From positions 40,734,001-40,798,000 of the forward strand of contig OZ024753.1 in NCBI GenBank assembly GCA_964016885.1: DNA of 64,000 nt, read 5' to 3'. Below, one piece after another: positions 11,301-63,246 of this stretch. Source of the DNA: Eledone cirrhosa. Lineage: Eukaryota. The first letter of the stretch is position 1. Each line of letters begins with the position of its first letter. The translations under genes and the position numbers were made by a program. The notes under the pieces are model-generated. The model ran no database searches, was not told the DNA's origin, and saw nothing but the letters and a program-made list of their open reading frames with translations.

Positions 11301-11500
11301 AACGAAGGAAATGTGGTAAGGAACCAGGTGGACCATAACGCACCAAAGTACTCAATACTTGAGGTAGTAGAGTGGGTAATAGGAACCAGTAAGACCCCGA
11401 CAGCTGAGCTCAAGCCGTTTCGACGGCTAATTCTCAAATTAGCCGTCGAATTAGCCGTCGAAACGGCTTGAGCTCAGCTGTCGGGGTCTTACTGGTTCCT
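11301..11500 (-). mobile_element. Family B TA-inserted fold-back cassette (long arm -, short arm +)
   Basis: The long arm matches the reverse complement of 63117-63246; an inverted short arm at 11449-11500 ends at gttcct and runs into (TA)n. Confidence 0.88.
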
Positions 11501-11825
11501 ATATGTATATATATATATATATATATATATATATATATATATATATATATATATATATACATATATATATATATATATAGTATATTAGGGAGAGGATCAG
11601 GGGTGTATAACACTCCACTTATACAACAGGCAGTATAAGGTTAGCTCGATGTCTGAGGACAGAGCCGTGATATTGTTCCACTTATAGTGCGGATGAAACA
11701 ATGTTAGCAAGTAAAGATATGCATATGCCATAGGCGTTCTTTGTTATTGATTATATATATATATATATATATGTATGTATATATATATATATATATATAT
11801 ATATAAATAAATATATACATATATA

Positions 11826-12248
11826 TAAAATATTAAAAAAATAATGAATAAAACAATGAAACAGTTCCTTATATTAAACAAAAAAAGTTCATTATTTAAC
11901 GATCGTTTCTAGGATTTATATGTGTTAGAATTGGCATGCATATTCAACAGATCTATGTACAAAATTATACAAACTATCAAAATTAAATATACATACCAAA
12001 CACATATATATGCCGTCTTCAGAAATAATAAATTTTATTTCTGAAGACGGCATATATATGTGTTTGGTATGTATATTTAATTTTGATAGTTTGTATAATT
12101 TTGTATAATTTTGTACATAGATCTGTTGAATATGCATGCCAATTCTAACACATATATATCCTAGAAACGATCGTTAAATAATGAACTTTTTTTGTTTAAT
12201 ATAAGGAACTGTTTCATTGTTTTATTCATTATTTTTTTAATATTTTAT
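11826..12248. repeat. Palindrome of about 420 bp (about 200-bp arms, short loop near 12030)
   Basis: The arms are reverse complements apart from about one substitution and an 11-bp duplication (ttgtataattt) in the right arm. Confidence 0.95.
12035..12181 (+). ncRNA. Putative type-I hammerhead ribozyme with long stem II (mirror copy on - in the left arm)
   Basis: ttattt-CTGAAGA(12041)...GAAA(12164)-cgatcg-TT-aaataa; stem II atatatatgtg/cacatatatat plus ttggtatgtatatt/aatatgcatgccaa with G-U pairs. Confidence 0.65.
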
Positions 12249-12450
12249 CTTGACTCTGTATTCCGTTTATCTTTCACCGAAAGTGATTTTTCATTGCATC
12301 TCTTCTTTCCATGATATCCGGATTACATTGAGTTCTTCATACGGATTGGACACTACCGTAAACTCTTGGTAGATTTATCTACATATATATATATATATAT
12401 ATATATATATATATATATATATATATATATATATGTAGATAAATCTACCA

Positions 12451-12651
12451 AGTCATAGTTCTTTCGTCACACACTCTGTGACCTCTTCAGTGACTGGGGA
12501 TTTCTTTCTTCGTTTCTGTGCCTTTCCTTTCTTCTATCCTACGCCATTTTCAAAATGGCGTAGGATAGAAGAAAGGAAAGGCACAGAAACGAAGAAAGAA
12601 ATCCCCAGTCACTGAAGAGGTCACAGAGTGTGTGACGAAAGAACTATGACT
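12451..12651. repeat. Perfect palindrome, 100-bp arms, 1-nt loop
   Basis: Axis at c12551 (cgccatttt-c-aaaatggcg). Confidence 0.95.
12607..12651 (+). ncRNA. Putative minimal hammerhead ribozyme (mirror copy at 12451-12495 on -)
   Basis: agtca-CTGAAGA-g-gtcaca/tgtgac-GAAA-gaac-TA-tgact; stem I agtca/tgact is perfect. Confidence 0.6.
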
Positions 12652-12817
12652 ATATATATATAAACAACTATCTGGTTGTGGAACCAACCAACCAACCAGA
12701 AATTTATAAATTTGTAAATTTATAAATATATATTAAATTAAATTGAAGTGAAAGCAACTGGTGCGTGTGTTTCTTATTGGCAACATGACCCTCCCAAAGT
12801 ATAACAATAAATATATA

Positions 12818-12877
12818 GTAATAATGATAAATGTGAAGACTAAAATCCAAAGAGGGCTCGATAAAGATATCAAATAT
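12818..12877 (+). repeat. Family C cassette fragment
   Basis: gtaataatgataaatgtgaagactaaaatccaaagagggctcgataa matches 28663-28710. Confidence 0.8.
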
Positions 12878-13118
12878 ACATACATACACACACACACAAT
12901 ATATATATATATATATATATTCGTAAATAGGGATAGGATCACAAAGATATCTCTCTTTCACACTCGTTATTTCAATCACTCCTTCTCTCTCTCTTTTTCT
13001 CTCTCTCTCTATCTCTCTCTCTCTCTCTCTCTATATATATATATATATATATATATATATATATATAGTGAAAATTTGAAAGGGGACAAAAACATATATA
13101 TATATACATGGACACACT

Positions 13119-13265
13119 AGAAGGGGAAGACCAAGGTTAACGTATGTTGATGCCCTAAGGACAGACACTGGTCTGTTGGAGACGCAGGACATGGCAGCGA
13201 TAATGAGGGACAGAGACCGCTGGAGAGAACTCGTCCATGGATCTCGGGAATTTTACCCGCCTTAG
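13119..13265 (+). mobile_element. RTE-clade LINE 3' end, heavily 5'-truncated
   Basis: Open 48-codon stretch RRGRPRLTYVDALRTDTGLLETQDMAAIMRDRDRWRELVHGSREFYPP* carries the RGRP..DR..W signature. Confidence 0.8.
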
Positions 13266-13275
13266 ATAGATATAT

Positions 13276-60000: not shown

Positions 60001-60535
60001 ATGTGTGTATGAATGTATCTTTGTATGAACATATGTATATATATATATATATATATATATATATATGTATATATACATGTTTATTTGTATATGTACGTAT
60101 GCATGTATCCAAGTATGTGTGTGTGTGTCTCATTATATATTAATGAGTGTTTGAGCAATAAACCGTTTATTTGAGGGTACGTATGTATGCTTGCAAATAT
60201 ATATATATATATACATATATACACATGTATATATATGTATATATATATATATACATATATACACATGTGTATATATATATATATATATATATATATATAT
60301 ATATATATATATATACGTAATCCTCTATAGGTCTATGCACTTTCCTTTGTGTGACAGGAATGTAAATATATCAATACATGTATGCACACGTTATTGCTTG
60401 TATGAATAGGTTTCCATATATTCGCGTGCTAGATTTAGTGTCACTCTTTACATATGACAGTGTGCAGTTGTTTCTATGCAATGCATATCATTGATTATAA
60501 CAGACAGCCTCTCTGAATGTGCATAGGATAATTAT

Positions 60536-60680
60536 GGGTGCACGAATGGCTGTGTAGTTAGGAATTTCTATTCAGAAACTATATAGTTGGGGTTTTCGCA
60601 CATTGAGAAAATGTCTCCAGCTATAAGCTCCGGTCAAACAAACATCTCTGGGTCTAATTTAATAAACAGAAACTGTGCGA
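60536..60680 (+). mobile_element. Highly diverged third SINE type
   Basis: tggctgtgtagttag..tgtctccagctata..acagaaactg resembles a common octopus tRNA-SINE; recognised from memory only. Confidence 0.45.
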
Positions 60681-60832
60681 TAGTATAAATTCTTCGCAGA
60701 ACTTCGCATCAATGCAGTTATACTGATAAACATTGCAACATTTTTATTATATAGGTAGCTATGTATCCAGCGAATGCACAATTGACCGTGATATCCGAGA
60801 CCTGTTTAGCAGGGCAAGGGCAGCGTTTTGAC

Positions 60833-61127
60833 CAGAGTTTCCCAACCTGAGCGATATAGCCCAGTAGGGGGCAATTTCAAATGTTGGATGGACGATGAGC
60901 ATCCGAACAGAAAATGTTGGGTTATTGGGAATGAATGATTTAGGATTTTGAATATTAAGAATGTATTTTAAATTATTCTACCCGAAAAACAATATATATA
61001 CGCAAATGATATATAAAAAGATCCTGTATAAATGTATAAAAACAAACGGGAATATCGAACCAGTAACAAACTTTTACTAAACATTTTTTATATGCTCTGA
61101 ATGTTTACTATACAGGTGGAAAAATTG
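60833..61127. mobile_element. Possible degenerate hAT MITE
   Basis: Left end cagagtttcccaacct; weak right end aggtggaaaaattg. Confidence 0.35.
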
Positions 61128-61389
61128 GTCTTAAATCAGTGAAAAGAGAATACGCCCGAAGTTATCACCTATTGCATGTCGTCATATATTCGACTGACTA
61201 TTAAATACGACTGTATGTGTATATTTGTGTGTGTGTGTGTGTGTGTGTGTGTGTGTGTGTGTGTGTGTGTGTGTGTGTGTGTGTGTGTGTGTGTGTGTGT
61301 GTGTGTGTGTGTGTGTGTGTGCGCGGTGTGTGTGTGTGTGTGTGTGTGTGTGTGTGAAAAACTAGCAACACAACAGGTTTAAGAATAAA

Positions 61390-61860
61390 TGAGCTTAGCA
61401 CTCCCTTGTCTGTTGAAAAATTATGAATGTTGGATTCTTATAAAATTCCAGTAATAATCAGAAACTGATTATACAGAGCGGTTGCCGGTCCAGCAAAAAT
61501 TGAAAATTAGAATTGGTGCTCTGAAATAACGATGTATATATGAATATATATATATATAGTGTATTTGGTAATACACGGTATGCTTAATTAAAAGCATTTT
61601 GAAGACCTTACGCTATTGTTTACTGGAATTCTATAAGAATCCAACATTCATAATTTTTCAACAGACAAGGGAAGTGCTAAGCTCAGAGGAATACCATCAG
61701 TATGAAATAGAGATCTGTCACCTTATCTCCCTTTGTTTGTTGAAAAAAGAAGTAAGTGACATAGTCACTACTTTAAAACAATAGCGTAAGGTCTTCAAAA
61801 TGCTTTTAATTAAGCATACAGTGTATTACCAACTACAGTATATATACATTCATATATATA
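61390..61860. repeat. Interleaved inverted repeats A-B-A'-B'
   Basis: A 61390-61454 / A' 61620-61685; B 61535-61621 / B' 61776-61860. Confidence 0.88.
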
Positions 61861-62459
61861 TATATCAAGCGTTAACCTAATATATCCTTCCATATTCTAT
61901 ACCGATTGTGTTGTTATTTCTGTTTATCTTTTACATATATACATATATATATACACATATATATATACATATATATATATATATAGTAATAATAATAAAT
62001 TTGAAGCGATTCTTTGCTTAAACTTTAATCTGTTATTTTAATAAATATATATATACACACATATATATATATATATATATATATATATATATATATATAT
62101 ATATATATATATATATATATACAAATATTAAAATTAAAATATAAATATAAATATAAATATATAAATATAAATTAGCGAGAATCGTATTTCAGCTTTGGAA
62201 TTAGCGAAAAACACTAATGTGTTGTTATTTCCGTTTATCTTTTACATATATATATATATATATATATATGTGTGTGTGTGTGTGTGTGTGTGTGTGTGTG
62301 TGTGTGTGTGTGTGTGTGTGTGTGTGTGTGTAAAAGATAAACGGAAATAACAACACAATCGGTACAGAATATGGAAGGGATATATTGATTGTTTTATATA
62401 TATATATATATATATATATATATATATATATATATATATATATATATATATATATATAT

Positions 62460-62667
62460 AGGAAGGAGTAGGACCCGGACGGCTGAGCTCAACCCATTTC
62501 GACGGCTAATTCTGGACTAAAACATTTTACTCCAGAATTAGCCGTCGAAACGGCTTGAGCTCAGCCGTCGGGGTCCTACTCGTTCCTATTACCCACTCTA
62601 CTACCCTAATCATTGAGTACTTTGGTGCGTTATGGTCCACCTGGTTCCTTACCACATTTCCTTCGTT
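62460..62667 (+). mobile_element. Family B fold-back cassette
   Basis: Short inverted arm 62460-62519 and long arm 62529-62667; both ends lie in (TA)n. Confidence 0.9.
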
Positions 62668-63116
62668 ATATATATATATATATATATATATATATATATA
62701 TATATATATATATATATATATATATATATATATATATATATATATATATATATAAAACAATCAATAGATATACATACAATATAATATATAGGAAATGAGA
62801 CAATTCATGTCGGAAGGACTGCAAGACGAACAACCAGAAGAAGGAATAGAAAGATAGATAAGATAGATAAATAGAAAGAAAGTCAAAGACAGAGGAAAGC
62901 AAAAGCAACCGAGGAATATAGCCAAGAGATAAACAACACATTAATGATATAAGGGTGTATTTTACTTGAGAAGAAACTATACATAGAAATGGTTATGGTA
63001 GGTGTATATATGTGTGTATATTTATCTATCTATCTATCTATCTATGAATTTATTTCTCTCTCTCTCTCTATATATATATATGTATATATATATATATATA
63101 TATATATATATATATA

Positions 63117-63246
63117 TTAGCCGTCGAAACGGCTTGAGCTCAGCTGTCGGGGTCTTACTGGTTCCTATTACCCACTCTACTACCTCAAGTATTGAGTACT
63201 TTGGTGCGTTATGGTCCACCTGGTTCCTTACCACATTTCCTTCGTT
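63117..63246 (+). mobile_element. Family B long arm only
   Basis: ttagccgtcgaaacggcttgagctcagctgtcggggtc..catttccttcgtt, flanked by (TA)n on both sides. Confidence 0.9.

Follow-up and report, generated by a model that had tools for sequence, protein, structure and literature searches.

A (TA)n-associated fold-back repeat in the Eledone cirrhosa genome as the likely truncated 3′ end of a Penelope-like retroelement

What kind of element leaves asymmetric fold-backs that abut runs of (TA)n and harbour a hammerhead-like motif is the question raised by a 64,000-nt stretch of the Eledone cirrhosa genome (hereafter the window). An earlier note had counted about ten copies or fragments of such a repeat, and all of those it had located are confirmed. 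The long arms are mutually similar, with BLAST E-values of 1e-34 to 1e-69, and the copies, some named below by a coordinate a few nucleotides from their start, are as follows.

11301–11499, minus strand: fold-back copy 11301; long arm with tail 11301–11440 (sense on minus), short inverted arm 11441–11499 ending at TTCC–TA
13276–13441, minus strand: subfamily 2 long arm (13276–13413) with a 23-nt inverted stub that halts past GAAACG
17503–17533, plus strand: solo short end of 31 nt, ending at TTCC–TA and flanked on both sides by (TA)n
17914–18051, minus strand: copy 17912; short end (17914–17955, ending at TTCC–TA) plus insertion
28486–28656, plus strand: subfamily 2 fold-back; short arm 28486–28530 (minus), long arm 28532–28656
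31655–31777, minus strand: long arm only, 5′-truncated at GAAA and adjoining a copy of an abundant SINE-like repeat
38884–39085, plus strand: fold-back copy 38883; short arm 38884–38943 (minus), long arm 38945–39085
47258–47350, minus strand: tailless subfamily 2 fragment; at axis 47320/47321 it has a 6-bp stub, beyond which the copy skips to short-end sequence and (TA)n
62461–62667, plus strand: fold-back copy 62460; short arm 62461–62523 (minus), long arm 62524–62667; GAAA lies at 62547, the cut is predicted after C62569 and the tail spans 62587–62667
63117–63246, plus strand: long arm only, 131/131 identical to the long arm of copy 11301

The asymmetric fold-back that had been described as the recurrent form is complete, with both long and short arms, in four of the ten copies (11301, 28486, 38883 and 62460), the axis of 11301 carrying a 12-nt duplication. 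Elsewhere the pattern is reduced: 13276 and 47258 retain inverted stubs, and four copies have no inverted part at all, being either long arms alone (31655, 63117) or short ends alone (17503, 17912). At least one end of every copy (10/10) is in contact with (TA)n, with sequencing reads concordant, and a tail extension of 78–80 nt is confined to one arm in 4/4 fold-backs. Insertions of Penelope-like elements (PLEs) are described as having an inverted 5′-truncated copy, a one-sided tail of 30–40 bp, (TA)n targets and hammerheads in their pseudo-LTRs (PMC8557442), and our copies resemble such complex insertions (Arkhipova et al. 2013, PMC3846280; Craig et al. 2021, PMC8557442) in the head-to-head inverted 5′-truncated copy with its palindromic junction, the one-arm tail, the (TA)n targets and the hammerhead-like motif near the 3′ end. 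Judged from sequence, the copies are likely truncated 3′ tail ends of a Penelope-like retroelement and, because this inverted-copy and one-sided-tail layout is already described for PLEs, the finding is mostly ordinary. Differences exist, in that the tail here is approximately 80 nt rather than the published 30–40 bp, the copies are cut to 30–200 nt, the predicted stem II is at least 20 bp and no ORF is linked within the window; the Octopus Naiad 3′ ends that were compared also differ in sequence from this family. A neighbouring family at 12434–12651 displays the same arrangement of long arm, short arm and (TA)n, and each of its arms contains a complete type I hammerhead.

The outer ends are the sharpest features of the family. 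That of the long arm, previously placed at or near CTTCGTT before (TA)n, falls at (C/T)GTT–TA in 7/7 cases and in both subfamilies, and lies 97 nt past the C of GTC (98 counting the last T) in every long arm, a spacing preserved through compensating +2/−2 indels between the subfamilies. The short arm was likewise correctly said to stop at TTCCTA before (TA)n, as five of seven short ends are exactly TTCC–TA (11301, 38883, 62460, 17503 and 17912) and the other two are no more than 1–2 nt away (28486, outside (TA)n; 47258, past an internal gap). This second site follows the predicted GUC cut by 17–19 nt. Its interpretation as a mere TA re-joining point is unsupported, because 17503 and 17912 have the same end although they lack a long arm, and because the site matches the known second border of PLE tails, which are bounded by two reverse transcription start sites (PMC11167929). 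The closest parallel is PAc, the Poseidon of Anolis carolinensis (Frangieh et al. 2024, PMC11167929), which similarly has two defined 3′ ends downstream of a hammerhead and an AT-rich target. The PAc ends, however, are start sites mapped in vitro and situated within the start of the ORF, whereas in the tail described here no coding constraint was detected (P=0.38). Such constraint was considered and rejected, since in the ATG frame 4/7 variants seen in reads are synonymous against a null mean of 3.1, and a protein search with the 40-residue ATG-frame reading of the tail returned no matches.

Public sequencing data attest to the abundance of the repeat, with 23,610 reads and 16,013 contigs (X1) aligned; both outer ends recur thousands of times in the reads, and longer, non-inverted copies are present. 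The end counts that follow come from the best-supported matches, a further 357 loose-end matches lying outside them. In run X17, at least 3,565 reads continue as (TA)n beyond 62589, at least 1,406 end at the subfamily form of the short-end site and at least 1,258 end at a variant of the long end. Read-end pile-ups in the same run at 62508, 62526 and 62536 were set aside as a signal of truncation and read depth was excluded from that measure, because they coincide with AATT sites and are likely a restriction-library artefact. No reverse transcriptase or GIY-YIG ORF is present within the 64-kb window, and a very abundant repeat for which coding copies were not seen is what might be expected of a non-autonomous hammerhead retroposon, a retrozyme- or SINE-like derivative of PLE pseudo-LTRs mobilised in trans and having no ORF of its own. 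Animal retrozymes have been argued to stem from PLE pseudo-LTRs (bioRxiv 10.64898/2026.07.22.740005), but the window copies of this family include neither tandem units nor a complete core, being 5′-truncated before it, and we regard this origin as unlikely. The family is likely an abundant PLE end, putatively uncatalogued in that short sequence probes are absent from the supplements of PMC8557442 (four probes of 11–13 nt), PMC13282606 and PMC8967140. A literature search covering few subscription journals found no description of the family, nor any of cDNA snapping back at stem II of a hammerhead. Exact-pattern scans of viral contigs, metagenome contigs and prokaryote genomes gave 0 loci, an animal repeat not being expected there.

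The sense strand had been said to carry GAAA, a near-palindromic stem III, a GUC triplet and GGGGTC, and the long arms do possess GAAA, a 5-bp stem with a GAGCTC palindrome, GTC and GGGGTC, 28486 differing by single changes. Of the features of a type I hammerhead, GAAA, a helix III closed by A–U and a UH cut site are found there. PLE hammerheads are described as having a palindromic helix III/loop 3 and an enlarged helix II, and the type I examples from PLE pseudo-LTRs (Cervera and de la Peña 2014, PMC4209133) share with our family GAAA, a palindromic-loop helix III, GUC and a candidate 6-nt helix I strand; unlike in those examples, helix III is longer here (5 bp plus a 6-nt palindrome) and the 5′ half of the core is not seen. 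The supposed absence of CUGANGA from every copy holds for nine, but 17912 contains CTGAAGA (18047–18041, sense strand) within approximately 95 nt of unrelated-looking sequence that precedes its short end. This may be a chance occurrence, since, when the non-simple part of the window is divided into 898 bins of 90 nt, 25 contain a motif of this type, and the insertion provides neither a stem I partner nor an intact GAAA. Nothing resembling a hammerhead emerged when this copy was folded (z −0.64). In the window, where the copies end before that part, there are 0 matches to CUGANGA accompanied by GACCCC, and none with a stem I partner appears within the 30 letters by which reads extend upstream; the hammerhead ribozyme is therefore only putative. 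Amongst the 150 of 561 Rfam matches listed there is no hammerhead, these being sub-threshold microRNA-like hairpins and one pestivirus 3′ UTR.

The 30-letter upstream sequence is non-inverted and identical in contigs of two organisms (at least 63 contigs in X1 and one in X5), and pairs with the 3′ strand of stem II over 15 bp in hairpin register. By energy alone 469 of 5000 shuffles are equally good (P ~0.09, not significant), and under a short-loop constraint, chosen post hoc, 160 of 5000 (P ~0.03); three tail segments pair equally well. The corresponding 30 letters of the second subfamily (at least 1,732 reads) have no obvious stem II partner by eye.

Unlike the outer ends, the fold axis is variable, lying 23.5 (62460), 21 (38883), 19.5 (11301), 5 (28486), 18 (13276) and approximately 30 nt (47258) upstream of the G of GAAA. 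It had been assigned to the would-be stem II loop, with the cDNA rejoining its target through TA pairing; on that account the short arm would end simply because the growing strand encounters the first TAT and pairs again with the (TA)n target. Position 62587 is indeed the first of two TAT trinucleotides reached from the axis, and several small deletions in contigs cluster at 62519–62523, near the inferred hairpin tip, as that account would predict. A fixed stem II-loop axis is nonetheless unsupported, because six copies have six different axes over a range of 5–30 nt, of which only the first few listed coincide with the inferred stem tip or lie close to it, and because in another hammerhead family of the window the fold lies approximately 60 nt upstream of the core. 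The copying moreover runs past an earlier TA (62577), and short ends occur solo, such that this version of events seems improbable. The variable axes speak equally against a hairpin or MITE-like DNA element moving as a unit into TA, the stand-alone hairpin that had been offered as an alternative. Inverted arms and TA flanks would suit such an element, but four of ten copies lack an inverted part, the two outer ends are unlike in sequence, the arms track subfamily alleles and there are neither matching terminal inverted repeats nor a constant interior; this reading is already contradicted and we consider it highly improbable.

Subfamily alleles agree between arms in 4/4 pairs, for which simple arithmetic gives a chance of ~8/2401 were partners drawn at random from the seven long arms, and the junction spacer is 0–5 nt in 5/6 copies even though the axes vary by 25 nt. 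Snap-back of the cDNA is a plausible source of the inverted arm and has already been proposed in the literature, where palindromic head-to-head PLE junctions are interpreted as self-priming (PMC3846280). A precedent also exists for R2, at whose 5′ junctions the 3′ end of the cDNA serves as primer for its own copying ahead of target joining (Zhang et al. 2024, PMC11371274), although R2 is another class of retroelement, studied in an engineered system and with no fixed outer end. The proposal of a retro-copied hammerhead remnant fits, and cDNA snap-back is plausible given the shared alleles, the stubs that start at the axis and these precedents; what lacks support as stated is the fixed axis and the TA re-joining. 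Spacers of 0–1 nt, as in 13276 and 47258, are too tight for simple snap-back unless trimmed later. Within a PLE origin, the short arm might instead be an independent second cDNA, with a dimeric enzyme nicking both strands and priming at +97 on one and +17/19 on the other, so that two pseudo-LTR copies from one source would both stall in stem II and be joined head to head. Cutting and extension of both strands are described for the PAc protein, a predicted dimer (PMC11167929), 47258 keeps a short-end piece despite lacking most of the arm, and the solo +19 ends of 17503 and 17912 face one another 380 bp apart, sharing a GTGGTC variant absent from every other window copy. Against this, arms meet within 0–5 nt at shifting axes, and the 13276 stub begins at the axis and stops before the +19 site; two-strand priming is accordingly a credible but less probable route.

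We consider it probable that the copies derive, by 5′ truncation, from the 3′ end (a pseudo-LTR with probable type I hammerhead, followed by the tail) of a PLE that bears an endonuclease and inserts into (TA)n, and that the inverted arm arises through self-copying of stalled cDNA. Points against this are that neither CUGANGA with its partner nor a reverse transcriptase or GIY-YIG ORF was found in the window, the longer tail, the tight spacers, and the Rfam and stem II pairing results given above. The copies themselves, their two outer end sites, the variable axis, the sharing of alleles between arms and the native non-inverted upstream sequence in reads are direct observations, the steps below being inferred. 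The element's endonuclease would nick (TA)n, and reverse transcription would begin at one of the two tail borders, which lie 97 and 17–19 nt beyond the predicted GUC cut. It would then stall, mostly no more than ~30 nt upstream of GAAA, inside the long imperfect stem II. The cDNA end could be joined directly to the target, giving long-arm-only and solo short copies, or could snap back, extend on itself and close at the family's own +17/19 site. A more speculative extension, which we think rather doubtful, is that the unusually long hammerhead stem II serves as a built-in stall and fold-back site for the element's own reverse transcriptase, with the long end measured 97 nt from the cut site.

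The value of the family lies in its use as test material, as its copies are numerous, both arms bear subfamily markers, the two ends are sharp and the fold axes cluster. The way in which inverted ends and tails of PLEs arise is called open in PMC8557442 and PMC11167929, and this family would permit a purely computational test of it. Caution is warranted, because hairpins of this sort invite confusion with MITEs or precursors of microRNAs, sub-threshold microRNA matches lying at 28486 and 38888. If the stem II stall reading were true, thousands of allele-marked copies would form a natural data set for weighing self-priming against two-strand priming in PLEs, and the PLE hammerhead would gain a structural role in insertion.

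Once oriented on the strand bearing GAAA...GTC-GGGGTC, the repeat is present at all ten sites, from 11301 to 63246, at which the earlier note had placed copies or fragments. The outer ends are as regular as proposed there: all seven long (sense) arms stop 97 nt past the C of GTC, at GTT/TA, and, of the seven short ends, five lie exactly at TTCC/TA, the other two being 1–2 nt off. The proposed fold-back is complete in four copies, with a full long and short arm, the remainder comprising two stubs, two long arms alone and two short ends alone. The claim of fixed breakpoints holds for the outer ones but not for the inner one, the fold axis, which is variable, though clustered, lying 23.5, 21, 19.5, 5, 18 and ~30 nt upstream of GAAA in six copies. 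The window copies form at least two subfamilies, the second having 2 nt more before TTCC and 2 nt fewer after it, leaving overall length unchanged. Two long arms 52 kb apart (11301–11431 and 63116–63246) are identical across 131 nt, which suggests recent activity of the family. At 17503–17955, two solo short ends sharing a rare GTGGTC variant lie tail to tail, and the 206 nt enclosed by them include a hammerhead match of their own, with its core at 17624.

Alignment of the sequence of the 62461 region to four public sequencing runs placed 16,013 contigs from X1, 23,610 reads from X17, and 3 and 40 contigs from X4 and X5, respectively; the family is highly abundant in organism A and also present in two other organisms. 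Both outer ends recur in these runs as loose ends: 3,565 and 1,406 reads support the short site, where solo and fold-back short ends are indistinguishable, and 1,258 a long-end variant; the common long end extends past the reference edge and was thus excluded from these counts. Substitutions, among those listed, mostly either adjoin the palindrome or lie 3′ of GGGGTC.

As to how the inverted arm arose, the alleles of the short arm match those of the long arm in the same copy in four of four cases. This rules out randomly drawn partners, but would fit self-copying as well as a pair of cDNAs with a single source. Three of the four short arms are closest to the long arm of their own copy, the remaining one to another long arm in its subfamily. 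The arms of 11301 are identical in a 42-nt core, with those of other copies differing at 5–6 of 45–63 pairs. Snap-back, in which the cDNA copies itself, is ranked slightly ahead: the arms meet within 0–5 nt despite 25 nt of variation in axis position, the axis is where the 13276 stub begins and where 12 nt are duplicated in 11301, and the process is known at R2 insertions (PMC11371274, in part). Only slightly behind is a second priming event yielding a separate cDNA from the same source, as favoured by the solo short ends at 17503 and 17912 and by the extension of both strands by PAc, the Poseidon element of Anolis carolinensis (PMC11167929, in part). The earlier proposal, snap-back followed by rejoining through TA, is slightly favoured in its first half; its second, with TA alone setting the short end, is not supported. 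The short end would instead be dictated by a second end site that belongs to the family itself, since the arm continues beyond the TA at 62577 and this end is also found where there is no long arm.

A type I hammerhead descriptor scan returned seven matches in the window versus 0–2 in ten shuffles, two of the seven being the arms of a single fold-back.

Hammerheads and other fold-backs in the window
12434–12651: near-perfect fold-back, all 99 pairs matched; each arm holds a complete type I hammerhead
10285 (−), 15727 (−), 18274 (+), 54127 (+): dispersed family of complete type I hammerheads; palindromic TATRTA helix III, 8–12 bp stem I
38723–38825, 53904–53995, 11861–12212, 38450–38571: fold-backs with whole or partial hammerhead core; axes ~3, 25 and 9 nt upstream of core, or unequal arms joined
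43113–43431, 61560–61837, 15543–15616, 34190–34254, 9948–10004, 30624–30742: fold-backs, mostly adjoining (TA)n; no hammerhead match in the descriptor scan

The short arm of 12434–12651 stops at (TA)n directly after stem I and the other has a tail of ~18 nt, and this is probably a young insertion of a different Penelope-like element (PLE) family. Its axis lies ~60 nt upstream of the core, contrary to the suggestion that folding occurs at the stem II loop. As this and about a dozen others (by self-comparison) also fold back, the architecture is general in the window, with no tie to stem II.

Non-inverted upstream sequence is represented by an identical 30-letter overhang before 62526 in 63 X1 contigs and one X5 contig. 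It starts with GCTA, the predicted partner of TAGC in the proposed stem II, and, in hairpin register, pairs with that strand across 15 bp (−10.0 kcal/mol), a result equalled or bettered by 469 of 5000 shuffles on energy alone and by 160 of 5000 under a short-loop condition added post hoc. CUGANGA, the 5′ half of the hammerhead core, is expected beyond the 30 letters displayed, and none with a GACCCC partner was seen in these overhangs or in the window.

The window is AT-rich, with 22,293 of 64,000 bases masked (about one-third simple repeats), and no real coding sequence was found within it. Its repeats may resemble cephalopod SINEs, which would fit an octopus genome. An abundant SINE-like family of ~190 nt (1328–1520, 6740–6933, 13930–14332, 30765–30959, 31777–31969, 44793–44981 and 48272–48781, by self-comparison) includes inverted pairs, and shares pieces with the minisatellites at 2840–4810 and 5667–6782.

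PLEs are characterised by inverted 5′-truncated copies, one-sided tails, (TA)n targets and hammerheads in their terminal repeats, or pseudo-LTRs (PMC8557442 and PMC8969392, in part). Their palindromic junctions were read as self-priming in 2013 (parts of PMC3846280), and in 2024 two RT start sites were found to delimit their tail (parts of PMC11167929). In Octopus vulgaris, they account for 6.83 % in 190 families (PMC13282606, in part). In Octopus Naiad 3′ ends, GAAAC lies by eye ahead of CTGATGA, which may be consistent with a hammerhead in permuted form (supplement to PMC8557442, in part). The family shares with PLEs the inverted truncated copy, one-sided tail, (TA)n and a putative hammerhead remnant, and what sets it apart from known ends is confined to the length of its tail, the conservation of the 97-nt spacing and a stem II that may be long. 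As no ORF linked to the repeat was found and the 5′ core half was not seen, membership is likely rather than proven. In its workings the element resembles a PLE end, and the family, which is real and abundant, is likely a PLE family end of known architecture.
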